Shown: one piece after another, positions 7,198 to 45,400 of the stretch
Position numbering within the stretch: the first letter of the stretch is position 1
Layout: each line of letters begins with the position of its first letter
Source of the DNA: Dictyostelium discoideum
Taxonomy: Eukaryota
DNA length: 64,000 nucleotides
Assembly: GCA_000004695.1 (NCBI GenBank)
Contig: CM000155.2
Location: 1,920,001 to 1,984,000, forward strand
Reading direction: 5' to 3'
Notes under the pieces: generated by a model
Database searches by the model: none
Seen by the model: the letters and a program-made list of their open reading frames with translations, nothing else
What the model was told of the DNA's origin: nothing
Program-made: the position numbers and the translations under genes

Positions 7198-7209
7198 GAA
7201 TCGAACCAT
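7198..7209 (-). promoter_or_regulatory. External B box (exB) downstream of tRNA-Gly.
   Basis: The minus strand reads TGGTTCGATTCC, about 31-42 nt 3' of the tRNA end. It matches the Pol III B-box consensus GGTTCGANTCC. Dictyostelium tRNA genes are known to carry a duplicated external B box ~30-40 bp downstream. Confidence 0.5.
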
Positions 7210-7239
7210 TGCCCTTTTCAAGGGAGTGTGAAAAAATTG

Positions 7240-7310
7240 TGCGTATGCTGGGAATCGAACCCAGTTCGCATCCGTGGCAGGGATGCATCATACCACTAGA
7301 CCACATACGC
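7240..7310 (-). tRNA. tRNA-Gly (anticodon GCC).
   Basis: The minus strand reads GCGTATGTGGTCTAGTGGTATGATGCATCCCTGCCACGGATGCGAACTGGGTTCGATTCCCAGCATACGCA. It has a 7-bp acceptor stem, an anticodon loop CTGCCAC, a T arm CTGGG-TTCGATT-CCCAG and discriminator A. Confidence 0.85.
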
Positions 7311-7439
7311 TTTTTATGATTTTTAAATAAATTATCTAATATTTTTTTGTTAAAAAATGTATGCTAATAAACTTTGAATAGGTAACACTCACTTTTTATA
7401 ATTTTTAATTTCAATAAATTCTTATAATGGCTAGCATAT

Positions 7440-22162: not shown

Positions 22163-22431
22163 ACAAATTCAATCATTACCACTTTAAAGCGACATTTAAA
22201 ATAATTTAAACATAATTTTTGTAGATACTTTACAATAATTTGAATGAAAAAAAAAATAGGGATATAATATTTTTTAAAGAGACATATATCCCGTAGAGGA
22301 TAAATAGTTTTTTTTTAAAAAAAAAGATTTCCCAAAAAAAAAAAAAAAAAAAGGAATTTTGGCCCCAGGCTCAAATACCAACCCACCCCAATGTAATTTT
22401 TCCCCAATCCCAACAACAAGCCCAACTTCAA

Positions 22432-22592
22432 ATGATGTTATATAAAGATATTAAATATTCAATAAATTCATGGATAACCCCCAGGGTTTTAGTTATATCC
22501 TCCCCCCCCGGATCAAAAATATTTCAAAGATTTGGTAATAATACTTCCTTAGAACAAGTTTTTTTTCCATATTTTTTAAAAAAAAAAAAAGG

Positions 22593-23503: not shown

Positions 23504-26500
23504 AAAATTAATAATATATTTTTATTTTTTTATTTTTTTATTTTTTTTAAAAAAAATAGATTGCAACAAATAAAAAAAGTTTCTTTTCAAAAGTTAAAGC
23601 ATTTAGATTTGGTGGTAAAAAGACAGAAGAACCAACAGAAACTGAAAATCCAAAGAATTCAGTATCAGTTGAACAATCAATTAGAAAAGTTGCAGATCTT
23701 TATTTCCTTTTACAAGATTATGAAAATGCATTATCAAATTATAAAACTTATGCAAAAGAATTTAATAGTGATAAATCACCTGGTTTTTTTGCTGCTGCAA
23801 ATGTTTGTATTTAATAATTATTAATTATTAATTTATAATAATAATATATTTATTAATTTTTTTTTTTTTTTTTTTTAAAAACTTTTTTAAAAGGAAATGA
23901 TTGGTTTATGTAATTATATGATTAATAAAGAATGTGAATCATATTTTGAAATTTCATATAATAATTATATAAAGAGTGGATTAATTCATTGTGCAGCAAG
24001 AGTTACATTAATACATGGTTATATAATGAAAAAGAAATCGAATTTTAAAGGATTATCAGATTTATTTAAGACAACAGCAGAACTTAGAGATATTGATCCA
24101 TTTTGTTCAGCGATTTTATGGGAACAAGCAGGTTTTGCATTATTACAAACGGCACCATCACCAATGTTTAGAAAAGCAACCATGAGAATTGTAATGGCAG
24201 GTGATAAATATTCAGAGGCATCAAAGAGAAAGCATGCATTGAGATGTTATAGTTTTTCATATTCAGTATATGAGAGTAGAGATTGGAATTTAATAGATGA
24301 TCATCTTCATCTATCATTGGTACGTTATTCATTTTTCCAAGGTCATACATCGGATGCCATCCTATTTGTAAATAAATTATTGGAGAAGAATTGCCAATCC
24401 TTTCAAAAACAAAATTCAATCATACGTGAATTCCTTTACATTAGTAAAACCTATACAAAAGATAACTATATAGGTGAATTACCAATACCATCGATTAATA
24501 ATGAATCAATCTCTGTTCATTTAAATGATTATTCACCCGATGGTAGTCAATCGGTTTGGCAAGAAATGGAAGAAGCATTTAAAAAAGAAGCTCAAATCAC
24601 TTCGAAACCTCAATTACAAGGTTTTGATCTTTGGAAACGTGATCTTTATTTTGAAGCTGAAAAAGAAAGAACTGCAGTCGTTGAAGAACAAATTACAATT
24701 GAAGTTGAAATTAAAAATCCACTTCAAATTCCATTACAATTTAATCGTGTTCATTTAGTTGCGACTTTTAAAGAATTATCAACAACAACAACAACAACTA
24801 CAACTGGTGGTGCTGGTGGTGGTGATTCAACTTCAACTTCAACAACAACAACAACTCAAACTGAATTACCAAAAGAAGAATCAAATATGTCACCATTAGA
24901 TGATTTAGCAATGAATAAAATGAATAATGGATTATTACCATTTAAAGTTGAACCAATTGATATTTTATTATTACCAAGTGAAACTAAAAAAATTGTTTTT
25001 TCAATTCAACCATTAAGACCAGGTAATTTAACAGTTAAAGGTTTAGGATTATGCATGTGTGGTGCAATTTGGGGTAAACGTGAATTTAAATTAAAGAATA
25101 AACGTTTAAATAAAACTAGACAACAAAGAGAATCCATTGTCTATGAACCAAATCTTTCAACCACTTTTCGTGTCACTTGTCCAATGCCACGTTTAGAAGC
25201 ACAATTTGTAGATTTCCCAGAATCACTCTATCATGGCGAGTTAAGACAATTGAAATTGGTACTAAAGAATTGTTCCAATAAAATGGGTTTAAAGAATGTA
25301 CGTGTTCGTCTTAGTCATCCAACTGCAATTTGTTTTGGTAGTAATAGTGATGATGCATCATGTATAAAGAAATTGGATCAATCTGTATTTTTAGATGTAG
25401 CATTACCACCAAATGCCACTGTAAACGTTCCATGTTGGGTTAGAGGTATGACTGTTGGTAGACATACATTACGTTGTTTGGTTTACTATGAATCTGAGGC
25501 TGGTAATACCGATTTAAAATATCGTTTAGCAAGATGTCAAACTCAATTTGATGTACGTCCTTCCATTAGAATCTCTTCTTTATCACAACAAAGTTCAACC
25601 AATTTAAACGCTTATCTATTGGGTGTTGAAGTTGATAATCCAATCATTGGTGGTGCTGGTGATAGTTTTCATATTAAACAAATCTCTTCAATTAGTAAAC
25701 ATTGGAAAATTCAACCACTTAGTTATTCAACTGATGTACCAACACCATCAATTGTTTCCTTAAATCCTGGTAAATTTACAAATCTTTTCTTTAGAATTAT
25801 ACCTTCAACAAATATTAGTGGTGGTGGTGAAGGTATTATTGAAAATAAAAATGATGAAATTTCAATTACAAATATTAGTTTTTATAAAAATGAACCAATG
25901 TATGATTCTTCATCTTTTCCAACTTTTCATTTTTTAGAATATGAAAAATTAACAATTGATCAATTACAATTGCAACAACAACAACAACAGCAACAATTAC
26001 AACAACAACAAATACAACAACAACAACAATCACAATTAAATCAATCAACTAATAATAATATGAAACAATCAACAAGTAATAGTCAATTAAATTTATTATC
26101 AAATAATAGAGATATTATTGATAATTCATTAAATGATAATCATCCAAATCATATTGATTTATTAATTTATTGGGAATGTGATAATAATAATAGAATGGGT
26201 GTTTTAAATTCATCAAATATTTCATTCTTACCAACTCATTACAATGATCCATCTTTAGCAATACCTTGGGGATCTTGGAAAAATACAACTTCACCCTCTG
26301 GAAAGAGTATACTGTATCCATCACTTAAGCTACCATTAAGATATCAAATTAAATCTGATCTCTTGATTAAACATAACTTTGAAAAGGAAAGACTTTGTAC
26401 TGTACCATTAAAGTTACAACTTTCAAATTGTTCATTCATTCATCCACTCTGTCTTTCAGTTGAAACTTTATTACCTCATGAAAATATCGATCAAACTTCT

Positions 26501-26716
26501 CATTCAACTTGTCAATACTTTTGGACTGGTATAACAAAATATAATATCGAATTGAAACCTCAAGAAATTATCAATGTTGATTTACATGTTTGTTTTGCTC
26601 AATCTGGTGTATTTAATATAAATCGATTTAAAATTAATGTAAAATTATCAAATGAAATTCATAAAGAAATTTATTCAACAATTCAACATTTAATAAATAT
26701 TGAATCAATTAATTAA
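22432..26716 (+). CDS. TRAPPC8 (Trs85) homolog, TRAPP-III subunit. Proposed exons are 22432..22534 (tentative), 22711..22896, 22992..23452, 23560..23802 and 23894..26716.
   Basis: TPWFEKYRHQFIKSL...HPIAVILAVSSEDSNPI...IYMLIHPDNAHTESEKRLNEMKTTFNTSTSYLLRVN, VRKVADLYFLLQDYENALSNYKTYAKEFNSDKSPGFFAAAN, FRKATMRIVMAGDKYSEASKRKHALRCYSFSYSVY and the C-terminal ...CFAQSGVFNINRF all align with human TRAPPC8 (IRKMADLCFLVQHYDLAYSCYHTAKKDF; VRKYAFHMILAGHRFSKAGQKKHALRCY). Donors are GTAATA, GTAAGT, GTATGT and GTTTGT. Intron phases 1, 1, 0, 0 are all consistent. Confidence 0.8.
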
Positions 26717-26829
26717 ATAAAATAAACTAAAATAAAATAAAATAATAAATATATATAAACAAATTAAATTAAAAAAATATATATAAACCTTTTTTTTTTT
26801 TTTTTTTTTTTTTTTATTAAAAAAATATT

Positions 26830-26976
26830 TTAAGTATTAAAATCCATTAATTGAATATTTATATTTTTTATTGATTTAAATAAAATAATTAAATTTCCAA
26901 ATTCAAATGATAAATTACAAATACTTTTATTTGAATTTAAAATATTATTATCATTATTTGAATTAAGTTTTTCATG

Positions 26977-27011
<35 letters not shown>

Positions 27012-27477
27012 AAAATGATTCAATTTTAAAAATTATTTGATTATTTATTGATTGTTTTTGCACAATTTTTAAAATATTTGGATTTTGACAATTCCTTTTT
27101 AAAGTTTTATATATGTTTTCTAAAATATCGACCAATACTAGACCAAACATATCTTTTAGCTTTTTTGGTAATAAGTTAAAGTATATATTTTTTAAAGATA
27201 TTTCATCAATGGACCAATCATTTTTTGAGGATATAATTTCTTTTATATCATTCAATTTATTTCCAATTTTTTCTATATTTATTTCAATATTATTTTTTGT
27301 TTCTTTTGAAAAATATTCATTGTTTGTCAAATAAAATAAATTATGATTATTATATTTATAATTATTTTTAAATTGTTTATTTTCAATATCTTTATTGATT
27401 TTTAAATCATTTTTATTTTCTATTTTAAGACTATTTTCAATTAATTGTAAATTGGTTTTTAATTGATTTTCTTTCAT
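26830..27477 (-). CDS. Hypothetical small K/N/I-rich protein (215 aa) with a poly-Asp tract.
   Basis: An ATG-initiated ORF. It is low-complexity, which is typical for this genome. I recognise no family. Confidence 0.3.
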
Positions 27478-28172
27478 AATTCTATATATTTATTTTTTTT
27501 AAATAACTAATTAATTATTTTTTATTTTTTTTTTTAAAAAAATTATTAAAATTTAATAATAAATAATCTTACCTCATTGCAATTAATGACATTTTTTTTT
27601 TTTTGGTTATTTTTATTAAAAAAAAAAAAAAAAAAATTAAAAATTTAAATCATTTTATTTATTAAAAAAAATTAAAAAAAAATTGGAAATAAATTGAATG
27701 ATATAAACAAGAAAAAATGAAAAAATATCGAAAATTTTTGGAAAAAGAAAAAAAAAATTTGGTAAAAATAATTTTTTTTTTGATTTTCTCTTAATATCAA
27801 ATAAAAAATTATATAAAAATAAATCAAACTGATTGGCAGATTGGGATAAATAAAAAATAATTAATAATAAATAAAAATAGATAAATAAAAAAATAAAAAA
27901 ATTATAAATTAATTATTTTTTTATTTAAAAAAAAAATAAATTTTATTTGTTTTCTTTTTTATTATTAATTTAAATTAAGAGAAGAAATTAAAAGTTTTTT
28001 TTTAAAAAAATTATGCATCTAATAAAAAAATATACACTAGTTCTGGAATACAGTATATTTTGCAGGTTAGTTTTGTTAATTTTATTATTTGTTTGGTAAA
28101 GTCATTTGGGTCTTAAAAATTACCTGGGTCTTTTTTAAAAAAAAGTTACAGTTTATTCACTTTTTAATAATT

Positions 28173-28184
28173 AGGAATCGAACC
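28173..28184 (-). promoter_or_regulatory. External B box downstream of initiator tRNA-Met.
   Basis: The minus strand reads GGGTTCGATTCC, about 33 nt 3' of the tRNA end. The spacing matches the tRNA-Gly exB. Confidence 0.5.
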
Positions 28185-28216
28185 CTTGATCTATAAATAA
28201 TTTTAATTTAAATATT

Positions 28217-28288
28217 TAGCTTCTCTAGGTTTCGATCCTAGGACCTCGAGGTTATGGGCCTCGCACTCTACCCCTGAGTTAAGAAGCT
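28217..28288 (-). tRNA. Initiator tRNA-Met (anticodon CAT).
   Basis: The minus strand reads AGCTTCTTAACTCAGGGGTAGAGTGCGAGGCCCATAACCTCGAGGTCCTAGGATCGAAACCTAGAGAAGCTA. It has an A1:U72 end pair, three G:C pairs closing the anticodon stem, anticodon loop CCCATAA, and a T loop AUCGAAA (A54/A60). These are the eukaryotic initiator signatures. Confidence 0.85.
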
Positions 28289-28412
28289 GTCGATACAAGC
28301 TAGTTGAACCGTATGATTTTAAATAATTTGGATATACAATCACTACCATAAAAAAACTTTTTAAATAATATTACAAATAATAAAAATTACTCATTATTAA
28401 CTTGACTCATAG

Positions 28413-28465
28413 GTCTCCCACTCTGAGTTAAGAAGCTGTCGATACAGGCTTGTTGAACATGATAT
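28413..28465 (-). pseudogene. Truncated duplicate of the 5' ~25 nt of tRNAi-Met plus ~25 bp of its 5' flank. It has no B box and no 3' half.
   Basis: GTCGATACAGGCTTGTTGAAC + AGCTTCTTAACTCAGAGTGGGAGAC mirrors 28262..28315 (GTCGATACAAGCTAGTTGAAC + tRNA 5' end). Confidence 0.5.
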
Positions 28466-28922
28466 CTCTTCAGAGAAAATATAATCACCACCCAAATATA
28501 AGGAAGCTATGCTTGTAAAAAAATAAAAAAAAAAAAAAAAAAAAAAGTTATCCATATTCAATTTAAAAAAAAAAAATAAAAAATAAAAAAATAAAAATTA
28601 CCCTTTTGGTTTTAACACATTCCATTTTATGACAAGTAATTGAAGTTTTTTTTTATTTTTTATTTTTATTGTAATAGATTTCAAAGTGATTACAATTGAT
28701 CAACAATTTCAATTTATTCTAATTTGATTTATTAAATAGTATAATAACATTATATTTTTAAAACATACTTTTTAATTCAAATAATAAAAATAAATTAATT
28801 AGTTTTTTTTTTATTTAATATATATTATTATAAGAATAATCCAATAAAATAATATCATGTATAAATAAATCAATTTTTTAAAATTTAGTATATGACTAAA
28901 AAAAATATTTTTTAATTTAATT

Positions 28923-29048
28923 ATTGTGAAAAACATTCAAGTTTGAGCACTTTTCAAAATTTGAAAATTATACATAATTTTATATGGGCTCCCATATAAA
29001 AATATTTTAAATTACAAAAAGTGCACAAATTTGAATGGTTTTCACAAT
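28923..29048. repeat. Imperfect inverted repeat. The 33-bp arms are 29 of 33 complementary, with a 60-bp spacer that contains a perfect palindrome TATATGGGCTCCCATATA.
   Basis: Arm 1 at 28923..28955 is ATTGTGAAAAACATTCAAGTTTGAGCACTTTTC. Arm 2 at 29016..29048 is AAAAAGTGCACAAATTTGAATGGTTTTCACAAT. The inner palindrome is at 28981..28998. Confidence 0.7.
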
Positions 29049-29202
29049 AAAAATAAAAAAAAAATTGAAAAAAAAATTATTTTTAAAAAAAATAAAATAT
29101 AAAAAATAAAAAATAAAAAAAAAAAATAAAAAAAATTAAAAAAAAAATGAAAAAGTTAAAAATTGAGAAAAATAATTTATTTCGGTCATTTTCGAATTTG
29201 AA

Positions 29203-29591
29203 ATGGAATCAGTAGAAACCACCACTCCCTCTAATTCAGAGATAAAATCTGTTGAAACTATTGTAGAGGAACAAAAAGTAAATGAAACCAATACAACATT
29301 AAACGCAGAAGTTGTTGAAACACCAACAAAAACTGAAGAAAAATCAAAAACCGAAATAACCAATGAAAATAAAGAAAGAAGTAGAGGATTAGAAGCTAAA
29401 ATTAAACCAGAATTTGTTTTACCTTTTAAAAAAATTGAAAAAGTTGAAGTTGATAAAGCTGCTAAAAAAAAAGAATTTAGAAATCAATTAAGAGAATCAA
29501 TGAATGATAAAGTAAGTAAAAAATAATAAAAAAATAATAATAATATATAATATATAATAATAATATATCATAATATAATTTTAATATTTAT

Positions 29592-29633
<42 letters not shown>

Positions 29634-31338
29634 ATGTCCAAAGATTAGTAAAGGATTAGTATGTGAATTTAATGAAACATGTAAATTTAGTCATGATGTT
29701 GAAAAATATTTAGCAAGTAAACCAAAATCAATTGGAATTTGTCAAAACTTTCAAACCTATGGAGAATGTAAATATGGATTAAATTGTTACTTTGGAGAAT
29801 GTCATATCGTTGATAATAAAACCATTGTAAACAAAGAATTAATTGGTAAAGTTGAACCAGTAAAAACTTTAAATGAAGTTTCAAATGAAATTCAAATTCA
29901 ATTAAAAACTAATAATTATCCATTCCCAAAGAGTGAAATTTATTTTAATGAAAATGGTATTTCTGTTAGACAAATTAAAGGTAGAAATAATAATAATAAT
30001 AAAAATAATAATAAACAAAATGATAATAAAAGAAAAGAAAATGAAAAAGATGATGATGATGATAAATTAAATAAAAAAATTAAGTTAGAAAATGAAAATA
30101 CTACAACAACAACTACTACTACTACTACTACAACAACTGAAACAACAGAAAAAACAGAAAAAACAGAAAAAACAGAAAAAACAGAAACAACAGAAACAAA
30201 AAAAGAAGAATTTAAACAAAGCAATGAAAATACAGAAATTGATATAATGACACCATTAAAAGCAAATGAGAAGAAAAGAATTAATTTTGAAAATCAATTA
30301 ATTTTAGCACCATTAACAACAGTTGGTAATTTACCATTTAGAAGAATTTGTAAGAGATTAGGTGCAGATATTACAATTGGTGAGATGGCATTAACAACCA
30401 AATTATTGGAAGGTACAAAATCAGAATTAGCATTATTAAAGAGACATCCATGTGAAGATAAATTTGGTGTTCAAATTTGTGGATCCTATGTTGACGCAGC
30501 TGTTAAATGTGCAGAGTTTATTGAGAATGAAATCGATGCTGATTTCGTTGATATTAATTCAGGTTGTCCAATTGATTTAGTTTGTAATATGGGTGCAGGT
30601 GCAGCATTAATGGAGAGACCTAAAAAGGTTGAACAATTGCTTAGAGGTATTTCAAGTAGTTTGTCATGTCCAACCACAATTAAAATAAGAATTGGTAAAT
30701 CAGAGGATGCCCCAACCGCTCATAAATTAATTCCATCACTTGGTGAATGGGGTGCTTGTGCAGTCACTTTACATGGTCGTAGTAGAGCACAAAGATATAG
30801 TCGTCTTGCAAATTGGGATTATGTTAAACAATGTTCAGAGGTTTCTTCAATTCCTTTGATTGGTAATGGCGACATTTACAACTATCAAGATGTTGTAAAC
30901 ATTTACGATAGTTCAAAGGTCTCCTCAATCATGATTGCCAGAGGTGCACTCATTAAACCTTGGATTTTCACAGAAATTAAAGAAAAGAGAGAATGGGATA
31001 TCTCTGCCTCTGAAAGATTGGATTTCATTCGTGACTTTGCAAATTATGGTTTAGATCATTGGGGTTCCGATAGAATCGGTGTTGATAATACTAGAAAATT
31101 CCTTTTAAATTGGTTATCTTTCTCTCATCGTTATATTCCAGTTGGTTTATTAGATAAAGTTCACTATATGAATGAAAGACCTCCAGCTTATTTCGGTCGT
31201 TCAGATTTAGAAACTTTATTAGCTTCCACTCAAGTTAAAGATTGGATTAAAATTACTGAAATGTTTTTAGGTCCTGTAACTTCTGATTATAGTTTTGTAC
31301 CAAAGCATAATTCAAATTCTTATGAATCTCAAGGTTAA
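29203..31338 (+). CDS. tRNA-dihydrouridine synthase 3 (DUS3/DUS3L) homolog with tandem CCCH zinc fingers. Exons are 29203..29511 and 29632..31338.
   Basis: [21 protein letters not shown] and [23 protein letters not shown] are two CCCH fingers. [30 protein letters not shown]...VDINSGCP...[17 protein letters not shown] is the DUS catalytic domain. The GTAAGT donor at 29512 and an A-rich acceptor at 29631 join in phase 0. An internal (GAAAAAACA)4 repeat encodes [12 protein letters not shown]. Confidence 0.85.
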
Positions 31339-31724
31339 ATAATAAAAAAAAAAAAAAATTAAAAAAAAAAAAAATTAAAAAAAATAGATAATATATTTTT
31401 ATTTTTTATTTTTTTATTTTTATTTATTTATATTAAATATAAAATTTATTTGATTACTGTTAATGAAATCTGTAAAGACTTATCAAAAATGAAAAAAATA
31501 GAGTTATAAAAAATATAAAGATTTAATGTGATTGTCAATTACAGGTAATAAAGAATCATAACTAAATGAGAATTTGAAGAAAATAGGTGGAAAGATGGAA
31601 TTACAAATCCTTAAATACCCAATTTTACATTGAGAGATGGTGGCTTTAAAAATAATCCAAAATTTGAGATTTTTTTAACAACACCACCCAATCATTAATA
31701 TTATTTTTAAAAATTTTAATTTTG

Positions 31725-31760
<36 letters not shown>

Positions 31761-31941
31761 ATATATTTCATTTTTAATTTATAAATTTTGTTTTTCATTG
31801 AATATTAGTGAGTATTTTAAATTAATATATATATATATATATATTTTTTTTTTATATTACACCTAAAACTAATTTTATTGAAACCACTTTCTTTTTTAAA
31901 ATATATAGAATCAGCAAAAGAATAAATGTCATGGATGAAGA

Positions 31942-32187
31942 TTATTGCTCAAATTGGTCATTTTGGTTTAACTGAGTTGGGGCTTTAATTTCAATTGGAA
32001 CTATTTTATTGTATTCTTGATTCGATTCAATGACAGATGTATCGACTTTAATCTCATCAGTTATTGCATATGATTGGAAATCACCATTGCAATCAATTCT
32101 TTGACCAATTCCAATTGGACTGAATTTAATATTTGGTGTTTTTTTTAAAAAACTCTGAATGCAAACTTTGGTTACCAATTGTAACAA
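31942..32187 (-). CDS. Possible exon or small ORF (81 codons) of non-repetitive composition. There is no in-frame ATG, so it may be part of an unresolved spliced gene.
   Basis: The open frame reads ...KFSPIGIGQRIDCNGDFQSYAITDEIKVDTSVIESNQEYNKIVPIEIKAPTQLNQNDQFEQ*. Composition is much less AT-biased than the flanks. Confidence 0.2.
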   Translation of the reverse strand: MLQLVTKVCIQSFLKKTPNIKFSPIGIGQRIDCNGDFQSYAITDEIKVDTSVIESNQEYNKIVPIEIKAPTQLNQNDQFEQ

Positions 32188-32595
32188 AATGAATTCATTT
32201 CCTCCAAATATTTATTTTGCCCACTAACTTATCTTTTTTTAAAAAAGCAATAAAATAAAAACAATGGAAATAAAAATAAAAAAAAAAAAAAAATAAAAAA
32301 TGCATTTTTCTATTTTCGCATAAAAAAATATAAATATTTTAATTTGTATATAGAAAAAAAAAAATTCCAAATCCACAAATTAAAATATTTATATTTTTTT
32401 TTTTTTTGTATTATAATTCCTCATTTAAAAAATAATTTGGTTTAATTTTATTTTGACTTTTCCTTTTTTTTTTTTTTTTTTTTTTTTTGATTTTTTTTTT
32501 TTTTTTTGATTTTTTTTTTTTTTTTAATTTTTTATTTTAATTTTATTTTTTTTTTGTATAAAAAACAATAATTAAAAAAACTAAAATTAAAAGCA

Positions 32596-33348
32596 ATGAG
32601 TTCAGAAAAATCAACATCAATTGAAAAATTAACCAAATATTATAGTTTACAAGTTGTTTCACAAGAAAGATTATATAATTTTTTACCAAAGATTAATATT
32701 TTAGGATCAGATAAAGTTTGTTGTGATTTCATTCATTCATTAATTGATCAAATATGTGGTAAAATCATTTCATTCGATAGATTTATAAATGATGAAAATC
32801 AAAGAATAATATATCAACTTATTAGAGTTTACACTTTATTTATAAATAAAGTTGTTGGTAAAGATTTAAAAAAAGAATTTGTAAGTGTTTCAATCAATCA
32901 ATCAACCACAATTCCATAATATTAATAATATTAATCAACTATTATTATTTATTATTTATTATTTATTATTTATTATTTATTATTTATTATTTATTATTTT
33001 TAAAAAAAAAAAAAGATTTGTGAAGATTTAAAAACATCAAATGTAGATAATATATATATTACAGCTATTTCAGATTGTATTATTTCAAGATTCCAAGATA
33101 TTAAAAAAGAATTAACAGAAAAATTATCAACCATTAGTTCATCATCATTAAGTGATTTCGATTGGAAAATGAATGCAATCCTATCAAGTGATAGAATTAA
33201 TATTGTACAAGAAAATGTTTTATTATTAAATCTTACAATCGAAACAAATATAAATGATAAAAAAGAACAAGTTTTAATTGAATTATCAAAAAAAGAATTG
33301 GATCATATTTTAGAAACTTTTGATCAAATTAATGAAGTAAGTTTTTAA
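32596..33348 (+). CDS. COMM domain-containing (COMMD-family) protein. Exons are 32596..32880 and 33016..33348. Alternatively a further donor GTAAGT at 33337 gives one more exon.
   Basis: The C-terminal LSDFDWKMNAILSSDRINIVQENVLLLNLTI...VLIELSKKELDHILETFDQINE is a textbook COMM domain (DFDW+v.lsS..l.....P.l.l.l...........el....l..ll..L). GTAAGT donor is at 32881. A (TTATTTA)n heptamer repeat lies in the intron at 32930..32998. Confidence 0.7.
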
Positions 33349-33370
33349 TTTAATTTTGGATGCAAATGTT

Positions 33371-33407
<37 letters not shown>

Positions 33408-33537
33408 CCTATGTTTATTAATATTTTTTTCTTTTTTTTTTTTTGGGGAATTCAATCATTAAAAGTTTAATTAAAAAAAAAATAAAAAAATAAAAAATAA
33501 AATAATAATAAAAAAAAAAAAAATCTAAAAGATATTG

Positions 33538-33586
<49 letters not shown>

Positions 33587-33633
33587 ATATTCTATTTTCA
33601 TACTTATGAATTATTTTATTTTTATTTTTAAAT

Positions 33634-34436
33634 TTACAATGATGGTACAAGATTTGTTACTTCTTGTAAAAACTTTTTAGATTCTACTTTACTATTTGGT
33701 TTATAAAATGGATTGCTTGTTGTATTTATAAATAATGTTTGTAATCTCTTAAAAAACTAAAAAAAAAAAATAATATATAATTAGTATTTTTGAAAATAAT
33801 AAATTGAAATTGGAAATAATAAAGAAATTAAATGTATTGATAATAGGACTTTTTAAAAAACTTACTAATTTTAAATCAGAATCTTTAATATCTGATGTAT
33901 CTAAAACTACAATAATGAACTTAATTTTTGTGTTTGTTAAATATCCATATCTAGAGATAATAAATAGTATTTTTTTTTTTTTTTTTTTTAATTTTAATAA
34001 TTGTTAGTTTTGTACAAAGTTTAAAATATTTATAATATATTTTATTCATACACTTTATAATCTTCAGTTGGGTATAATAAACCTAAATACATATCACTTG
34101 GTAACTTTTTGTTTGAACCAGCTAAATGAAAAAAACAAAAAAAAAAAGATGGGATTAGTATGAATGAAAACAAGAAAAAAAAAAGATTCATTGAATTACC
34201 TACGTTTATCCTCTATAATATCTAATGAACAATGAACGATATAGTGTAATTTTAATTTATTTTCATCAGTTATACTTGATGAAAAATCTTGAATAAATAA
34301 TGGGTTATTCTATTTAAATAATAAACTATTAATAAATAAATAAAAAAAATAAAATAAAAACAGAATAAGTGTTGGTTTAATTATCTTTTTTACTTACTCC
34401 CTTTCCAACGATTGCGACACAAACAATTTTCTTCAT
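33634..34436 (-). CDS. TRAPPC2 (sedlin) homolog. It has 5 exons, 34436..34398, 34309..34204, 34121..34052, 33950..33866 and 33756..33634, giving 140 aa.
   Basis: The spliced product is MKKIVCVAIVGKG|NNPLFIQDF...HYIVHCSLDIIEDK|PGSNKKLPSDMYLGLLYPTEDYK|VYGYLTNTKIKFIIVVLDTSDIKDSDLKL|FFKRLQTLFINTTSNPFYKPNSKVESKKFLQEVTNLVPSL*. It aligns end-to-end with human sedlin (140 aa; FYFVIVGHHDNP...AHAALDLVDENMW...[52 protein letters not shown]). Donors are GTAAGT, GTAGGT, GTATGA and GTAAGT. All intron phases are consistent. Confidence 0.85.
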
Positions 34437-34518
34437 TTTGAGACGTATACTTTTGATGTGTTAATTAAAAAAAAAGAAAAAAAATTAAATAAAAAAAAGA
34501 TTTTTTCATTTTATTTTT

Positions 34519-34553
<35 letters not shown>

Positions 34554-35559
34554 CATTTTTTTTTTTTTTTTTTTTTTTAAACAATTAGTTTTATTTATTT
34601 TTAGTATGAATTTAGTTTATAAAAAAAGAGCACCCAAAAATACACAAAATCACATAAATTAGATTGGTTTTTTTTAATATTGCAGATATGTTTTACTTGT
34701 GCAACAGTTTCAAATGATAATGCCATTAAAATTTGGAATTTAAATCCAAATCAATAACAACATCAATAACAGTCGTACTACAACAATAATACTAACAGCA
34801 ATGAATAAATGTGGTACACTAGTTGAAACCAGCGTTAATAGTTCATTAAAGATTTGCTCAAAATTATTTAATTTTGGTGGTTAGTATGCTTTATTAAGCA
34901 GCGCTTGTTATAGTAGAATTGTAATGTTGTGGTGGATTTAGATGTTCATGGATCCAAAGTGGTGGTGATGATAATTTCTTTTTCATTTCAACTCATTTAT
35001 GTGCTGATGAAAAGCATTACTTTTATCCTGGTGGTATCGATGTCAGGATGTTGGTGAAACTTGTCATTTCTCTGATCAATTCAATTTCATATTCTTCATT
35101 ACTATCTACAAATACAACAACTATTACTACCTATACCTGAACAACAAATTCAAATAAAAAAAAAAAAAGAATAAAAAAGAAAAAAATGATCTTAGGATTT
35201 TTTTAAATTAAAAAATATTAAAATTTATTTTTATTTTTATTAAGTTTTGATCAAAACAGAATTAATTTAGTTTTAAAAAAAAAAAAAAAAAAAAAAATAT
35301 AAATTGTAAATAAATATTTAAATTCAAGTCAAAAATATTTTTTTTTATATAAAATTTATCCCCACTCGTTGTTCTTCAAAATAAAAAAATAATTACAAAA
35401 AATGAATGATAAATAATTAAATTCTAAAAATAAGGATTCTCATATTAGAACTATCACATTCAATTTTTTATGTTTTTATAAATAGAAATTTTTTTTATTT
35501 TTTTATTTTTTATTTTATTTTATTTTTTTTTTTTTTTTATTCGCCTTTTTTTTCGTTTT

Positions 35560-35590
<31 letters not shown>

Positions 35591-35630
35591 GAAATTAATA
35601 AACTATTTTCAGAACTAAAAAGAAAACAGA

Positions 35631-36688
35631 ATGGAAGCATTTCAAAAGATTCACCCATTAGAATTTTATAGAAAATATTTAGTTAGATCAGTTAGACCAG
35701 ATGGTAGATCTTTAGACGATATAAGAAAGACAACAATTTCAACAGGTTCAATAACCACAGCAGATGGTTCATCATTTGTAAAAATTGGTAGTACATCAGT
35801 AGTTTGTGGTGTTAGAGCCGAAGTTGGTGAAAAACCGTCAATTGATAAATCAAAATTTTCAACATTAAATGTTCATGAAAATAAAAATATATGTAAGTCT
35901 TTGATTATTAATTTTTTTTTTTTAAATTTTTAATATTAATATATTTAAATAATAATAATATTATAATAATAAATAAATAAATAAAGTTATAAATATAGAA
36001 TTAGGACCAATTTGTTCAAATACATTTTCATCAAGTAAACCTTCAGATATAGCAATGTCATTATGCTCAAGATTAAATTCACTTATAAATCGTTTAGAGA
36101 TACCAGAAACAGATTATTACTTTGATGAAGAAGGTAAAGCATTATGGTATTTATATGTAGATGTTTATTGTTTAGATTATGATGGAAATATATATGATGC
36201 TGCTGTACTTTCAATAATATCAGCTCTTAAAAATGGTAAATTATAAATTATAAATTATATAATTATTAAGGTATTTTTATAAAAATTCTATTACTAATAT
36301 TTATTATTAATTATTAGTAAAATTACCAAAAGGAATTATTGAGAATAATGATGAATTTTATAAAGATTTAGAATCACCACAACGTAAATTAAATATTCAA
36401 CATTATTTAATCCCATTATCATTTTCAGTAATTGATGACTATATACTAGCAGATCCATCATTAGATGAAGAGAAATTATCATCAGGTACAATTAATATTA
36501 CATATAATGAATTAAATGAAATTTGTTTATTACTTTCAAGTGGAACAAGTTTAATATCAAAAACAAATTTAAAAACTTGTATGGAAAAAGCAAAAGAAAG
36601 ATCTACTTTCATTATAGATTTAATAAATAATAGTAATAATAATGATAATAATAATAATAATAATAATAATGTAGAAATGAAAGAATAA
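35631..36688 (+). CDS. Exosome component EXOSC8/Rrp43 (RNase PH-like) homolog. Exons are 35631..35892, 35987..36235 and 36318..36688.
   Basis: MEAFQKIHPLEFYRKYLVRSVRPDGRSLDDIRKTTISTGSITTADGSSFVKIGSTSVVCGVRAE matches human EXOSC8 ([58 protein letters not shown]). [36 protein letters not shown] matches [36 protein letters not shown]. Donor T|GTAAGT gives split codon T|TT, and donor G|GTAAAT gives G|TA. Confidence 0.85.
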
Positions 36689-36744
36689 TAATAAATTAAA
36701 TTTTTTTTTAACATGAATTTTTTAATTTTATTTATTTAATTTAT

Positions 36745-37413
36745 TTATTTCCATTTTATTTTTGAATTTGATAAAGATTCATCTAAAGATTGAATTATTG
36801 GATGGTTAATACCTAAATTTTGTTGAATTTTAATTCTAAATTGTTGAACTTTCTTTAATTGTCTCATTGAGATTAAAGATTCTAAAGCTACTTGATAGAT
36901 GTTATATTGGATTGAACATTCATAACGACGTTGATCATCTTGAATCATACGTGCGCATTGTTCAATGAGATCCAATGGCGCCATATTTATTGTTAAGATT
37001 TCAACGAATGCTTCAATTGGTATATCAGATACAAATGATTTTGTAAAAATGCCTTTCTTCTTTGGTAGTATACTATTAATGTATTGCCAATCTTGTAATC
37101 TTGATCTACTAGTGAGTTGATTGTAAAGATAGATTTTATTTGAAACTTTATAATTCTCTTTATAACTTATTGGTGACGATAATTTATCTTTTGGTGCACT
37201 TGGATGATAAACTAAACAATAATAAATTGTATCACTAACTGATTTACCAATTAATGTAGTTGGTCTTGGTACTCTTTGAAATATTGGATCACCCTTTAAA
37301 GCTAATTCACTATCAAATTGTTCAATTTTAATTTGTCTATCTAATACTGATAAATAAGTTTCAACTTGTTTTAAATAAATATCTAAATTATTATTATTAA
37401 TACTATTACCAGT

Positions 37414-37444
<31 letters not shown>

Positions 37445-37863
37445 CCAAAATTTACACACCATTGATTTAATAATATTACTTTTCTATTTAAATCTTTTTC
37501 TTGAATTGCCATATATAGATTAATATAGATTTCTTCATTTCTTTGATTATTTTGTTTTTGTAAAGTTATTACATCATTAAATTTACCAATTCTTCTTAAA
37601 TAACCTAAAAACATATCATATAAACCAAATTTATTACTATCACTAATTGAATTTATAACCTCAAAGAATAATCTTGTATTTAAACTATTGTATAAATAAT
37701 GCATAACCATTAAACTTGCATCCATATCCATTGATATTACTGATTGTCTAAGTATTTCTTTTTTTTCCTTTATAGTTTTATAATTTGTTAATTTCCTTAA
37801 CTCTTGATTTAAATTAAATGATTTAAAACTTGATAATTGTTCTGAATTATTTGAATTATTTGA

Positions 37864-37922
<59 letters not shown>

Positions 37923-38192
37923 ATTGATTTTTTTGATTTTCATCTTCTTGTTGTGATGAAGAAGATTGTTGTAAAATGTTTTTATGTTTATTTATAAATT
38001 TATTTGTATTTTTTAATTCTTCATTCTCTTCTAATAATTTCAAAAATTTTGTATTCAATTGATCTAATGATAATTGTAATGATTCTTTTTCTTGTATAAC
38101 TTTCATCATATTAGATCTATAAGTATTTTCTTTAGATTCAAACTCTTTATTCATTTGAATTTTTACATTTCTAATTAAATTATCAGCATCAA

Positions 38193-38286
<94 letters not shown>

Positions 38287-38616
38287 TTGAGTTACCAAAG
38301 ATGTCACTGCTGCTGTTGTTGTTGTTGTCGTTGCTTTTGTTGAGTTTTTAAGTGTTTGTTGCTGTTGTTGTTGTTGTTGTTTTTGTTGTGGTTGTTGTTG
38401 TGGAGGTGGTGGTAAAGGTTTTTTAGTTATTGGGGTTGGTTTTGTATCTTGTAAAAATGGATTCAAATCATCATCATTCTTACTTGGATTGGATTCTTTA
38501 TTGTTACAAGAAGATGTGGATGTATTTAAGAATGGGTTTAATTCCTCTTCTGATTTATTATTTATACTAGAGTTTTGCATTAAAAATGGATTTAATTCAT
38601 CTTCATTTTTAAGTGT

Positions 38617-38690
<74 letters not shown>

Positions 38691-38906
38691 GCTGGAGTTG
38701 ATTGTTATTTGAGGTTTGTTTTGATAAAAATGGGTTTAAATAGTCATCTTCACCTACTAAATGTTGTTTTGTATTATTACTAATAGGTATTGGAGGTAAC
38801 TTCTTATTCGATATATCATCGTTTGATGTTAAAAATGGGTTATCATCACTTGAAAAATTATTATTATTATTGTTATTTGTTAAAGGAGTTACAGGTAGTG
38901 ATTTTC

Positions 38907-38993
<87 letters not shown>

Positions 38994-39099
38994 TATTATT
39001 TTTGTTATTATTAGAAAGTGGATCAGTTATTAAATTGGCCCCATCTACTATTTTGTTGTTTGATGGTAAATCAAATGGGTTATCTTCAAAAGGGTTCAT
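36745..39099 (-). CDS. Hypothetical 784-aa protein with at least 6 N-terminal NPF motifs (EH-domain ligand type), long poly-Asn/poly-Gln tracts, a coiled-coil-like middle and a structured C-terminal region.
   Basis: A single ORF from ATG. It contains NPFEDNPFD, NPFLTSND, NPFLSKQ, NPFLMQN, NPFLNTST and NPFLQDT. (CAA)n at 38614..38690 encodes ~26 Gln. The C-terminus (...DMFLGYLRRIGKFNDVITLQKQ...LNQWCVNFGKQ...EAFVEILTINMAPLDLIEQCARMI...) has non-repetitive composition. Confidence 0.6.
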
Positions 39100-39384
39100 T
39101 GTGGTATATCAACTTTCGACTTTACAAAAAAATAAAAAAAATAAAAAAATAAAAAAAAAAACAAAAACACAATAAAAAAAAAAAATTAAAAAAAATAAAA
39201 AAAAAAAAATTTAAAAATAATCAATTTCCCATTTTTCCAAGATTTATTATTTTTGTTAAGAATAAATAAAGACAGACTGGAAAAATAAATATATTTTTTT
39301 TTTAAATTTTTTTTTAATTTTATTTATTTACTATTTTATTTTATTATTTAAAAAATATTATTTTTTTTATTATATTATTTGGTT

Positions 39385-39453
<69 letters not shown>

Positions 39454-39494
39454 ATAATTATTTAATTTTTTAATTTTTTAATTTTTTTAATTTT

Positions 39495-42400
39495 TTAGTT
39501 TGTAACACCAAAATTTAAATCATATCTACTTGAAGCTATCATTGGATCTAAAATAAGAATATTTGAAATTGTTGCTTTTCCATTAACCATTGTTGCAGCG
39601 TTATAAGGAATAGATGAAGTTGGTAGAGGTGATGGAATAATTGAAAGTGTAACTGAATCAGCTGTAATAATATATTGTTGATTTTGGTATGGTGGATTAA
39701 TGAATTTAAATAGACCTAATGAATCGGTTGATTGTTTTTGAATTAAGGTACCATTGGCAAATAATAAACTAACGGCAACACCTTGTTTACCTTGCTCCCA
39801 TGGTTCTTGAATACCATTACCATTTGTATCAATAAAGACAATACTACCAAGGGTAATTGGTTTTGGAGAACAGTGGGCTACAAGTTGACCAAGACCCGAT
39901 GCTTTGCCAAAGGTAACTGGATTGACTGTATCTGAATTATCAGTGAGATAAACTTGGAATGAAGAACGAAGGGTACCATTGTTATTGTTATAAAATTTGA
40001 CTACACCTTCGAATACAGTTGTAGCATCGAATGAAGCTGATGCAACCTCTGGGAAACCTGGAACTTGGAAAACTGAAAGACCACCAGTATCATCATGACC
40101 AATTTGACCTTTTCTAAAGTTATCATTATAGAATTCACCAGTACCTGGACCTTCAATTTGACCTTTATAACCTGATGGACCTGTATGAGAACCAATAGCA
40201 CCACCACATTTACCATCTCTTTCTGGGACATAAACTCCATTGACCAAACAAATACGTAAAATATCTGGTGCCGATACGAAACTACCTTGATCACCTTCTC
40301 TATCTCTGATACCGATAACCATATCATTACCATCGAATGTAATTGATGCAACGACTGGTTGTGGATTGTCATCGATATCAATCCATGGTTGCCATGTACT
40401 GTTACGACAGACTGTATTTGAATCAAAATTCTTACAACCTCTGCTATAATTTAATGGTAGAGTGACAACCTTTGTGAAGACTTGAGTGACTGGATCAAAA
40501 GAGTGAATGATTGCATTCATATCTGGGATGGTTGGACCACCACAAACTGAACCTGTATAATATTTACCTTGATGGAAGTTGATTGCAAATGGTTGCCAGA
40601 AATATTTGTCTTGGGTTCTTGTACAACCAAATGGAACCGTAAATCTTTGAGTGTTTGTTTTATTTGGCTGAGTATCCAATGGCATTATAATAATATCACG
40701 GGTTTGTAAACCAACTACTGCCAAACTACGAGTGTATGGATTAATAACAATACCACCAAATGCTGTACGATAAATCTCTGAAATTCTAAAATCTGTATCT
40801 AAACTAATGTCCATACCTAAAATATCATCAGTACCTTCTGTATCTTTTTCAAGGAAAGAATCAATTCTAGTGTATAGTGAATTTCTACCGGTTACAGTAT
40901 CGATCTTATAGATTGCATTAAGACGTCCAGGGCCATAATCTGTACCAAACTTGGTGAATGCTGAGGCGTAAAGTTGTTTCTTACTACGATCATAGGCTAG
41001 ACCATAGGTTGTACCTGATTCATAATAGAAGGATAGTGGAGTGATTTGATTATGTTGAGTAGAATTGTATGGGAACATAACGATAACTGGTTCACCAGTG
41101 TTTGGACCATTTTCATCACTATTACCAATGACATAACAACCTACTGAAAGATTTGGTACATCATTACATGTTTCTTCATTGGTGATGAAAGAGAAATCTG
41201 CAAATCCTGCTGGAACGGTGTAGGTGTTTGGAAGAATTACTGAAGTTGGTCTACATGTTTCAACCTTATCGCCTGAACCAGTTGGAAGTGCTGGCGTACC
41301 TACTGTAATCAAATAATTACCATCTTGTACAAGATTAAAGAATGAATATGAACCGGTTGAATCTGTAAGAGTGGAGTTGAAAGGAGTCTTACTATCGGCA
41401 TAGTAAATATAAACTGGAATCTTTGAAAGTGGTATATCTTTAGCTGTACCAAATTGACCACTGATATCGTATTTACCGTTACAATTGTAATCTTTGAAAA
41501 CTCTACCAGTGACATTCTTAAGACTTGGTCTAATTACACCAAGATTAACTGGTTTACATTTATATTGAGAGAATGGACAAACTATATTATCATCATCATT
41601 TGCATCCAATGTAAACATTGTAGAATTAAAGGTACCCAATAATAAAGAGTTTGTTGGTGAGCCAGTTACATTGAATTTAGTTGTTAGCCAACCAGATCCT
41701 GATGGAGGAATCAAGGTGAGTGTATAATTACCAAGTTGAAGGTTTGGAATTGAGAAACTACCATTGGCTGCCACTGGTGAGGTTGCAACAACAGTACCAA
41801 TTGGAACTGTAGTTAAACCACCATTAACGGCTTGATTGGCAGATTTCAATTGAACAGTAAAGTTACCTGGTGGAACTGAACCCATTTCAAAGAGACCATC
41901 TTGTAAAACATCATTCCAAACGTAACCAAATACACCCATTGTAGTGAAAACAAAACCTGCATCATGAGTAGGGTCAAGGTATGGTGCTGTATATAAATTT
42001 GATTCATTATCAAATCTTGAACGAATATCGGATGATGTAATAATAAGATTAAATGCATCAGTTCTACCATTAGGGAATGCATTGTTTTCTACTTGATTTG
42101 ATGTTGACACTAATTTGGTTGGAGTGATTGAATAACCGGCTGGTATGACAAATTGAACGATATAATAACCTAAACGTACATTATCAATGTAATAGTAACC
42201 TTGAGAGTTTGATACTGCTTTCAATGGGTTACCATCTGAACCCATAACTGGTTGACCATTGTTATTTAAGAGAAGTACAGTAACATTTGGTAATGGTTTT
42301 TCATCAATATCAAAGATACCATTCTTGTTGGTATCAATAAAGGTTCTAACACCCAATGCAACATATGGGGTATTTATACCAACATTGGCTTTGTTGTACG

Positions 42401-45400
42401 CTTGTCTACAACGACTAACACTTGATACAGTTACTACATCTGGTCCTGGCATTGTGAATATTGGTGTTGTACGATTTAATGGGAAGAATCTATTGTTGAC
42501 TAAACCAGTAGTGGTGAAATTTGAAATGATATAACGAGGTGGAATTGAAACTGTCATATAGTAGGAACCTGGTGGAACGTTTGGAATTGAATATTTACCA
42601 TTTACATCTGTGACTGCCATTTGAATTGGTTTGCCGAAAATATCATTTGGAGTGGAACCATCTGCATTAAAGAGTGTAAGGTTTACATATGGGAAACCAA
42701 TTTCATTGATATCAAAGATACCATTGAGATTACCATCGGACCATGATTGTTGACCAATACTGTAACATGGGATTACAATACCTGCATCATTGTTTAGATT
42801 TTTCCAAGTATTTGATCCATAGGTTGTATCCAATGTAAAGTTATTCAAAACAATTACTTGACCGTTTGCTGTGGCTCTTGACATACCACCTGTCAAAATT
42901 GGTGAATAAGTAGTACCTGCAATATATTTGGTACTATTGGCAGGTATAGTTAATCTTACTACATAGGAAGGTCCACTTGATACATTTTGGAATAAATATT
43001 TACCATTGGCAGTTGTTACTTGACTTGAAATTGGTTTACCTAAAATATCCAATGCTGGTGAAAGATCTGAAGATACTAATAATTCAACTTTAATACCATC
43101 TGCACCAACTTCACCATTGTCTAATAGTGAATTATTATTTGAATCAATCCAAATAGTATCACCTAAATATATTTTTTTTTTTCATCAAATTATATTAAAA
43201 AAACAAATTATTAATAAAAATAAAAATTTTAATAAAAATAAAATTATATTTAAAAAAAATTTAATACTTTACCAATAATAAATGATTGTGGAACATAACC
43301 AACATTGAATGTATAATTCTTATTGAAAGCCTTGAGATTATCTGATGGAACTGTACGTAATGTATTATTATAAATTTCAATATCTAAACATAATGTATTA
43401 TTACCTTTTAAGAAATTATCTGGACCTGATATACCAAGTTGATAGGTTGGATTTGGTGGTATGAAAGTTAAACAATCGTTACCAGTTTCTAAATTATCAA
43501 AAATGTAGAAACCATTGGCATCAGTTTGTTTGGTCTTTGAACCAATTGAGATTGTAACATTTGCAATACCTGGTTCATCTACATCTTTCTTACCATTGTT
43601 GTTAATATCTAAGAATACAAATCTACCAATTGCTATCTTGGGTGGAACAATACCAAAGTCTTGATAGATATTGATATAGTTTGCTTTAAGATTCCAAGTT
43701 GAATCAATTAGCATAAGTGCTTTATCATTTTGACTGAGATCAATACTGATGTAACCAGTTGCATTTGCCTTGTTATCTTGAAGAGTATTATTGGAGATTG
43801 TAAAACCAACTGGTGGAGTAATTGCTAAATTGTAAACTCCTGGGTATAAATTATCGAAAATGTAGATACCACTTGGATTTGTTACGGTAGATGTTATAAA
43901 GTTAAAGTTACTATCATAAATTCTAACAGTAATACCTTCAACTGCAGGTTCATATGATTCAGCTCCACCATTACCATTCTTATCTACCCAAATATATGTT
44001 CCAACTGCATATTTGTATGGGGCTAAACCAAAATTAACAGTGGCATCTTGATAGGTATCTTCAGTATGACTTGGAATTGAGAATCTTTGAACGGTTGGAC
44101 TGAATACAGAGACATTGGTACAAGCAATAGCATTAGAATCACCTCTATTAAATGTTGTTGGAGTTAAGAGAGTTGGATAAAATTCTTTTGGTACAGTGAG
44201 TGAAACGCAATAATTTCCTGGAGCTAAATGGGTAAAGATGTATGTTCCATTGGCATCTGTTGTTGTTGTTGCAATGGTTTGTGATAGGTTAGAACCACTT
44301 CTTAAGAAAACTGTAATATTTGCCATACCCATTTCACTTGGTTGCATTTGACCATCTTTATTGTCATCATTGAAAACAATGAAACCAATACTCAAATATT
44401 CTGTGGTGAAACCAGCATCAATATTTCTATTAATATAATAAGTTGGTACTTTATCTGATGCAATCGATGCTGTAACATCTGGACTATTGATTCTAAGAGA
44501 AACTGATACACGTCCTCTACTGTTTACTTTAGATTGATCTGTTATTGGACTTGGTTTCAATTGTTTTGGATAACCAAATTGTACAACATAATCTCCTTGT
44601 TCAACATTAACGAAATGATAGATACCTTGTGAATCAGTGGTTGTGGTCATGAGAGTTGTATTGAATAAATTCAAAAGTCTAACGGTAATATTAACCAATG
44701 GAGTATCTTGGGCACTATCAAATAGACCATTTCCATTAACATCACGGAATACAAAGTCACCAATTGAAAAGATTGGTGGAATTAAACCACCATTAATATC
44801 ATTTCTACAAATTGGATCACCATAATTAATAGTGAAACAACTTAAACCTTGAGGGTTGAATACAGAGTCATTGGTTATCTTTGTCATTATATAGTTATCG
44901 ATAATGGATAAACTTACACAATAATTTCCAACAACTAAATTATCGAATCTATAATTTCCATTTACATCAGTTGTTGTAGTTTGAGTTGGTAAAGCGGTGT
45001 TATTTGGAGTAAGAGTAATGGTTAAGTTTCTATATGGTTCTTCGGTTGGTTCTGGATGACCATTACCGTTAATATCAATCCAAACATATTTACCAACACA
45101 ATAAAGTGGAACTAAACCGAGGTTTGCGTCATTTTTATTTCCAGATAGCGTGAAACAATATTGTTGTGTGTTTGAATCACCACCAATTGGTGAGAATGGT
45201 GAATCATTTGATTTTGTAACTGCTTTGAAATTTTGTGGAACTGATGCAGTTAAACAATAATTACCGGCTAATAATTGACCAAAACTATATTTACCTTGTG
45301 AGTTTGTTGTTGTTGTTTTTATTTCTGAGTTTCCAGTGTTAACAAGAGAAAGAGAAACATTTGCTTGAAGTGGATCATCTAAATCTTTAATACCATTATT

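Follow-up and report, generated by a model that had tools for sequence, protein, structure and literature searches.

What is a comparatively GC-rich (guanine- and cytosine-rich) stretch of DNA doing between two genes of an AT-rich genome, when no open reading frame (ORF) of any substance runs through it? The question is raised by a 456-bp island, 34680-35135, in a 64,000-nucleotide window of Dictyostelium discoideum (positions 1,920,001 to 1,984,000 of contig CM000155.2, assembly GCA_000004695.1; all coordinates below are those of the window). The island lies between two divergently transcribed genes, TRAPPC2 and EXOSC8. A first-pass annotation made from the letters alone had reasoned that such composition usually means functional sequence, and had put forward a non-coding RNA (ncRNA) gene, a heavily decayed pseudogene or exon relic, or a dense regulatory module shared by the two promoters. 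Of these candidates, the second has the most in its favour: a neutral rate of change, frame-breaking insertions and deletions (indels), a mosaic of reading frames and weak traces of protein families. With slightly more confidence than doubt, the island is therefore read here as a decaying, non-functional remnant of protein-coding DNA on the + strand, that is, as ordinary genomic debris.

Composition and divergence of the island

The GC content of the island is 30.5%, and its best 100-nt windows, at 34900-35100, reach 33-36%. The left flank (34437-34679) stands at 12.8%, the right flank (35136-35630) at 12.5%, and the whole window at 26.1%. The contrast first noticed is thus real, although the 35-40% then given for the island was too high. 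In D. discoideum, published median GC values are 25% for ORFs, 17% for long non-coding RNAs and 13% for intergenic DNA (PMC5295588), and the island is therefore compositionally coding-like; on the reading preferred here, it stands out only because coding sequence is far richer in GC than intergenic sequence in this genome. The sequence is complex and non-repetitive, as had been said: it contains neither tandem nor dispersed repeats, and there is no second copy of it in the window. The statement that no ORF exceeds about 30 codons holds for the ATG-initiated ORFs inside the island (30 amino acids at most), but not more widely, since the longest ORF with any start codon has 42 amino acids (GTG, 34929-35057) and the longest stop-free run has 71 codons (34925-35137). 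A 41-amino-acid ATG ORF on the minus strand also overlaps the left edge.

Two further assemblies allow the island to be followed beyond a single genome. The first, hereafter the sister assembly (GCA_054859355.1, JBTAPG010000061.1), is labelled D. discoideum and was compared with the window over 25207-45000; its long blastn alignments are 93-95% identical to the window, indicating a close yet distinct lineage. The second (GCA_054883475.1) is independent and essentially identical to the window. It carries an identical island, stops and frameshifts included, which rules out sequencing errors as the source of the stops.

Between the window and the sister assembly, the island differs by 22 substitutions over 433 aligned sites (5.1%). 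In the neighbouring genes, the same comparison gives 49/1000 (4.9%) at 4-fold sites, 117/2557 (4.6%) at third codon positions, and, for the first two codon positions, 65/5114 (1.3%). Seven indels of 1, 3, 31, 10, 5, 1, and 18 nt also separate the two copies, five of them frame-breaking. Since the island diverges at the rate of 4-fold sites and accumulates indels, it evolves neutrally; half-constrained sequence would predict about 10 substitutions, not the 22 observed. Neutral rate and deletions together exclude a conserved protein as well as a structured RNA under strong constraint. For this unconstrained island, the assumption that such composition is usually a sign of function consequently fails, and one comparison, with a lineage some 5% diverged, suffices to show its neutrality. 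The pieces lost are complex sequence, and both lineages are therefore losing DNA. Most of the island's stops are common to the window and the sister assembly, which would place the loss of function before the two lineages split.

Immediately to the left lies a divergence hot spot (34651-34701), where about 16 substitutions fall within 50 nt together with 2 indels, and which perfectly conserved blocks border on either side. As for the sister assembly itself, a divergence of some 4.9% at 4-fold sites together with many indels points to a lineage deep within the species or to a sibling species.

Traces of a coding past

Which protein, if any, did the island once encode? Along the + strand, three long blocks follow one another by best-scoring frame: 34680-34754 in frame 2, 34750-34938 in frame 0, and 34925-35137 in frame 1. 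The codon-usage path along the best frames scores 12.3, a value attained by 0 of 500 shuffled sequences (-61 ± 17). The codon-usage score of the minus strand resembles that of the antisense of real genes, and the values are like those obtained when coding sequence is simulated with indels and 10-20% substitutions. In the sister assembly, an ab initio gene call is present at the island on the + strand: ACTFIW_007016, a “hypothetical protein” of 99 amino acids, the first 31 codons of whose model derive from the middle block. This same model was the single match when the stitched + strand translation was searched against 5.8 billion proteins, and the middle block has no significant family match of its own. 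The frame mosaic, the gene call and the weak family traces described below all point to a coding ancestry.

Could ACTFIW_007016 simply be a real, small orphan gene, as annotated in the sister assembly with one 62-nt intron? The model does exist there, and the 10-nt and 5-nt deletions jointly restore its frame in that lineage. In the window lineage, however, the frame is broken and the indels do not sum to a multiple of 3, while the independent assembly, near-identical to the window, has no gene call at this place. No homolog was found among 1.84 billion representative proteins, there is 1 synonymous change against 3 non-synonymous ones within the model, and the “intron”, at about 34% GC, does not look like those of Dictyostelium. 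By our own estimate, chance alone would give an open run of 68 codons about once in four at such composition. An orphan gene is thus hardly credible at this locus, and the “hypothetical protein” is probably not a gene.

To return to the remnant of coding DNA, its family was sought in a deletion-filled reconstruction of 536 nt, in which all indels between the window and the sister assembly were treated as deletions and the gaps filled. A six-frame Pfam test of this sequence gave matches in one frame, which holds both Hist_deacetyl (E = 0.0032) and WD40 (E = 0.012); there were none in the remaining five filled frames, nor in the three minus-strand frames of the window. Among nonsense-translation controls, 1/20 had any Pfam match (E = 0.0073), and the joint significance of the two traces is put near 0.01 by our own estimate. 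The family suggested is therefore composite, a histone deacetylase (HDAC)-like catalytic core plus a WD-repeat-like strand. For further comparisons, our own profiles were made with human RACK1, GNB1, WDR5, and HDAC1/4/6/8 sequences, and are approximate.

The HDAC-like trace occupies a 90-codon open frame of the filled sequence, NCNVVVDLDVHHANEWNTTLEWIQSGGDDNFFFISTHLCADEKHYFYPGGIDV..., the same frame as the WD-like motif. Pfam Hist_deacetyl (PF00850) matches the reconstruction with E-values of 0.0014-0.0032 and 17.3-18.4 bits, over profile positions 145-183. The hallmarks DLD[VI]HH, STH, and FYPGG come in the correct order: the sister assembly reads DLDIHHANE...IYPGG, and the window DLDVH, then a deletion, then ...STH...FYPGG. 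Across the six-frame window and the loci of D. purpureum, T. lacteum, and H. album, the patterns D[LWIVMF]D[VIL]H and [FY][FY]PG[GTS] are found here only. Aligned with hhalign to our own HDAC1/4/6/8 alignment, a family chosen after the Pfam scan, the filled sequence gives P = 2.4e-4, the natural sister sequence 0.004 and the window 0.032, the remaining frames giving P of at least 0.076. Compared with the PF00850 core (class II/IV-like, DxDxHHGNG...SxH...FYPGxG), the filled frame reads VVVDLDVHHANE...FFFISTH...FYFYPGGID, again in the right order. The likeness is nonetheless incomplete. Both glycines of HHGNG are replaced, by A and E; the motifs are spaced 4-8 residues further apart than in human HDAC1/6/11; the PPGHHA and GFCxFN motifs, which belong upstream, can no longer be made out; and the window copy has lost its HH through the 31-nt deletion. 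The HDAC-like assignment is consequently a lead only, whereas coding ancestry on the + strand is the safe conclusion.

The WD-repeat-like trace is shorter. In frame 2, CATVSNDNAIKIWNL has the form of a canonical WD-repeat end, fitting a repeat of the beta-propeller clan in its last strand and WD dipeptide region. With our own WD-repeat hidden Markov model (HMM), the peptide from 34623-34754 ranks first of the 2921 six-frame peptides of the window (E = 0.0034), and hhalign gives P = 4e-5 against at least 0.076 for the remaining frames, the family having again been chosen after the Pfam scan. The canonical WD pattern occurs at this site only in about 250,000 codon positions. The large phmmer significance against WD40 proteins of the PDB is inflated, because one 18-residue segment matches every repeat. 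WD40 proteins carry tandem repeats of about 40 residues, while half of one repeat is supported here, and the strand may be coincidental. A relic with several WD40 repeats was considered and set aside: the putative second and third repeats fail the HMM test, and one half-repeat survives.

A number of observations weigh against a coding remnant. The codon-usage test separates the island poorly from its AT-rich flanks. The two family traces belong to different families, a stop-filled stretch lies between them in their shared frame, and both fall below all curated thresholds, the gathering cut-off of PF00850 being 27.9 bits. The natural peptide of the sister assembly has no Pfam match, an NCBIfam scan returned nothing relevant, and tblastn with human HDAC1 and HDAC6 fragments found no match. 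A RACK1 processed pseudogene was rejected, as there is no collinear tblastn match with human RACK1. Neither a parent gene nor an intact ortholog came out of protein, metagenome, viral, and syntenic-locus searches, although the protein set searched seems to lack the window's own proteins, which leaves room for a D. discoideum paralogue. The viral scans were empty, the metagenome scan gave one spurious match (the antisense of a bacterial binding-protein gene), and the absence of any relative of ACTFIW_007016 among the representative proteins counts here as well. A relic so young that it retains 30% GC ought to be recognisably like its parent. Lastly, an exact match to the Dictyostelium upstream sequence element (DUSE) upstream of the island is left unexplained by a coding remnant.

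How might such a remnant have come to look as it does? The island would be a pseudogene fragment with no present sequence-specific function, drifting like other neutral sequence from the GC content of coding DNA toward the ~12.5% of its flanks, and AT-biased mutation and deletions would not yet have had enough time to erase it. The 30% GC retained would mean that function was lost recently, on the order of a few times the age of the split between the window and the sister lineage. As such a relic would be young, yet no parent was found, the parent would be lineage-specific and lost, unsampled, or missed by the searches. The island shares with decayed pseudogenes, unitary or fragmentary and including those annotated in D. 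discoideum, a coding-like composition, stops and frameshifts common to several lineages, a neutral rate, progressive deletion, and putative family traces spread over several frames. It differs from them in having no identified parent or ortholog and a family below curated thresholds, and in that about 150 codons survive. If the HDAC-like trace is true, it would be the record of an HDAC-like gene specific to this lineage and lost recently. The case also calls for caution, since a GC-rich, ORF-free island in an AT-rich genome is often read as an RNA gene, which decaying coding DNA can mimic.

Table 1. Positions of the island, of the elements predicted in and around it, and of the two flanking genes
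Feature	Position	Strand	Remarks
GC-richer island, read as eroding coding remnant	34680-35135	+	composition, neutral divergence, frame mosaic, codon-usage path
WD-repeat-like trace CATVSNDNAIKIWNLN	34698-34745	+	frame 2; Pfam WD40-type families, E 0.005-0.012
Middle segment INNNINNSRTTTIILTAMNKCGTLVETSVNSSLKICSKLFNFGG*YALLSSACYSRIVMLWWI	34750-34938	+	frame 0, one stop; best codon-usage frame
HDAC-like core trace, NCNVVVDLDVH (frame 2), then WIQSGGDDNFFFISTHLCADEKHYFYPGGIDVRMLVKLV (frame 1)	34917-35065	+	31-nt deletion at 34948/34949 between
A-rich tract, 3′ edge of island	35152-35187	+	within a 95-nt stretch missing from the sister assembly
DUSE ACCCAAAA	34632-34639	+	exact match to [AT]CCCA[AT]AA; ~45-65 nt upstream of island start
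Imperfect hairpin of 80 nt, predicted	34699-34778	-	free energy -20.9 kcal/mol, z -4.12, bounds post hoc
TRAPPC2 (sedlin), left neighbour	33634-34436	-	140 amino acids, five exons; spliced manually
EXOSC8/RRP43, first exon, right neighbour	35631-35888	+	86% identity to D. purpureum RRP43 protein

The case for an RNA gene

The ncRNA gene of the first-pass annotation finds no support in Rfam, folding or conservation. A scan of the whole window at gathering thresholds returned two transfer RNAs (tRNAs) only, and a permissive scan of 34000-36000, taken to E = 10, gave matches at chance level, the best at 22 bits against a threshold of 70. Compared with shuffled sequences, the fold of the island has a z-score of -0.44 on the + strand and -1.70 on the minus strand; locally, the best + strand value is -2.45, and overlapping minus-strand windows at 34670-34900 come near -2.9. 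Resemblances to U5, an Sm site, snR30, and C/D boxes noticed by eye were rejected, as they have no Rfam support (best C/D E-value about 6).

Why, then, keep an RNA gene in the discussion at all? DUSE, the motif [AT]CCCA[AT]AA, is found ~60-63 nt upstream of many Dictyostelium ncRNA genes (PMC3188802, PMC7919456), and the exact ACCCAAAA before the island stands at just this distance from a GC-rich start. It is this motif that keeps alive the main rival reading, that of a lineage-specific + strand ncRNA gene, starting near 34695-34702 and tolerating rapid sequence change. Only 4 DUSE matches occur in the 64 kb against 20.9 expected from shuffles, two of the others lying inside coding-like sequence; the motif and its surrounding 25 nt are identical in the sister assembly, and it overlaps a small AAAATACAC repeat. 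Segments of at least 300 bp with at least 27% GC and open frames all shorter than 80 codons number three in the window, and the two besides the island surround tRNA-Gly and tRNA-Met. An exact DUSE some 60 nt before a GC-richer, ORF-free stretch would resemble the arrangement at DUSE-dependent ncRNA genes (small nuclear RNAs, Class I/II RNAs).

Beyond this arrangement, the island departs from those genes. It has no conserved RNA sequence or structure and no Rfam family, it changes at a rate like that of 4-fold sites with indels of 31, 10, 5, and 18 nt between lineages about 5% apart, and the region is absent from D. purpureum. The predicted start falls in the divergence hot spot, where 34692-34701 alone has 5 substitutions and 1 deletion in 10 nt. 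Class I RNAs are 42-65 nt long and have a 5′/3′ terminal stem with an adjacent 11-nt motif, CCUUACAGCAA (PMC3188802, PMC7919456), whereas the island candidate is several times longer. A Class I RNA was rejected: the best motif candidate (34791-34801, 150 nt from the DUSE) matches 9/11 positions, about chance level, with no properly spaced terminal stem, and a GTTGA at 34831 is not followed by the Class I motif. All in all, a DUSE-driven ncRNA gene is unlikely, though it deserves to be kept in mind.

On the minus strand, the imperfect hairpin of Table 1 raises another rival, a precursor processed into a young microRNA (miRNA)-like RNA. Besides its own folding energy, it can invoke the overlapping windows near -2.9, since among 326 further windows with at least 22% GC only 1.5% reach z of -2.8 or below. 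In the sister assembly, four one-sided changes, three of them within the hairpin, keep the pairing and none disrupts it. Yet the hairpin is suggestive at most, because its bounds were picked after the fold had been seen and the background reaches similar values: its minimum of -3.97 means that such z-scores arise in ordinary coding sequence. Consensus folding is moreover biased toward kept pairs, the 7-nt loop is short, and the published supplementary lists of D. discoideum miRNAs compared here contain no match. A small-RNA precursor can accordingly be given very little credence.

Relic and RNA gene could also be one and the same. A young ncRNA gene specific to D. discoideum might have been born on the dying gene, either as a DUSE-driven + transcript or as the minus-strand miRNA-like hairpin, and although this combination is quite unlikely, it would be a case of ncRNA birth from pseudogene DNA caught in the act in a social amoeba.

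Three observations elsewhere in the window touch on the same question. The two GC-rich, ORF-free segments with tRNAs, 6976-7525 (tRNA-Gly, 7239-7310) and 27976-28550 (tRNA-Met, 28217-28288), extend several hundred bp past the tRNAs themselves; remnants of tRNA-targeted retroelements are one possibility for the extra sequence. A shorter C-rich island at 22330-22545 reaches up to 45% GC, with a GC skew of -0.85 and no ORF above 55 amino acids; it has no Rfam match and, judged from these features, could represent a small RNA gene that has escaped annotation or else a fragment of a repeat. A DUSE-like match, TCCCAAAA (22330-22337, +), stands just before its sequence.

The TRAPPC2-EXOSC8 gap and its surroundings

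The flanking genes are as first described, TRAPPC2 starting at 34436 on the minus strand and EXOSC8 at 35631 on the + strand, the former being confirmed by the Sedlin_N Pfam domain present on orthologous models and the latter by its identity to RRP43. In H. album the two genes are separated by about 280 bp, and in T. lacteum they are not adjacent. Nothing similar to the island is found at the syntenic loci of these two dictyostelids or of D. purpureum.

The gap of D. purpureum has a content of its own. On contig GL871014.1 (7543-9669, minus strand), an intronless ORF of 708 amino acids lies between TRAPPC2 and EXOSC8, the annotation covering its last 207 amino acids only. Its only homologs, at 38-46% identity, are on bacterial contigs, where they adjoin LolA, SerS, RecN, TldD/PmbA, and beta-lactamase genes. 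From these matches it looks like a horizontally acquired bacterial gene, in which case D. purpureum would independently have taken up a bacterial gene in the very same gap. The island itself is not a relic of it, this origin having been rejected for lack of tblastn or profile similarity in any frame.

A gap so prone to insertion, as the bacterial-like ORF of D. purpureum and the ~280 bp of H. album illustrate, invites the idea that the island is itself an insertion that was never coding in this lineage, whether as a piece of a transposon, a copy of organellar DNA or foreign DNA. The A-rich tract at its 3′ edge fits as well, being compatible with a poly(A)-like tail, though not diagnostic in an AT-rich genome. 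But searches of the window and of about 100 kb of related loci turn up no second copy, terminal and inverted repeats are lacking, and there is no ribosomal RNA or other Rfam match, no match in plasmid, phage or viral collections, and no translated match to transposon or organellar proteins. Origins from mitochondrial DNA transferred to the nucleus (NUMT), a plasmid, a phage or a virus were rejected on these grounds, and a non-coding insertion in general is highly unlikely.

The last candidate is a module of cis-regulation or chromatin organisation serving both divergent promoters, those of TRAPPC2 and EXOSC8, a role that the position between two divergently transcribed genes would suit. The dense regulatory module originally proposed gains no support, however: the island is lineage-specific and unconstrained, the same gene pair manages with about 280 bp in H. 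album, and Dictyostelium promoters are AT-rich. It is instead an 80-nt block at 35371-35450 that is perfectly conserved, and a regulatory island is very improbable. This AT-rich block, upstream of EXOSC8, is identical in the sister assembly amid surroundings that differ by about 7%, and is on this comparison a stronger candidate for a conserved promoter or 5′-untranslated-region element than the island is.

Further to the right, a giant gene on the minus strand (39498-64000) continues up to the window's end; one of its open frames has 1228 codons and another at least 6916. Its orthologous models range from 9785 to 11505 amino acids, and going by repeat content our guess would be that it is colossin-like.

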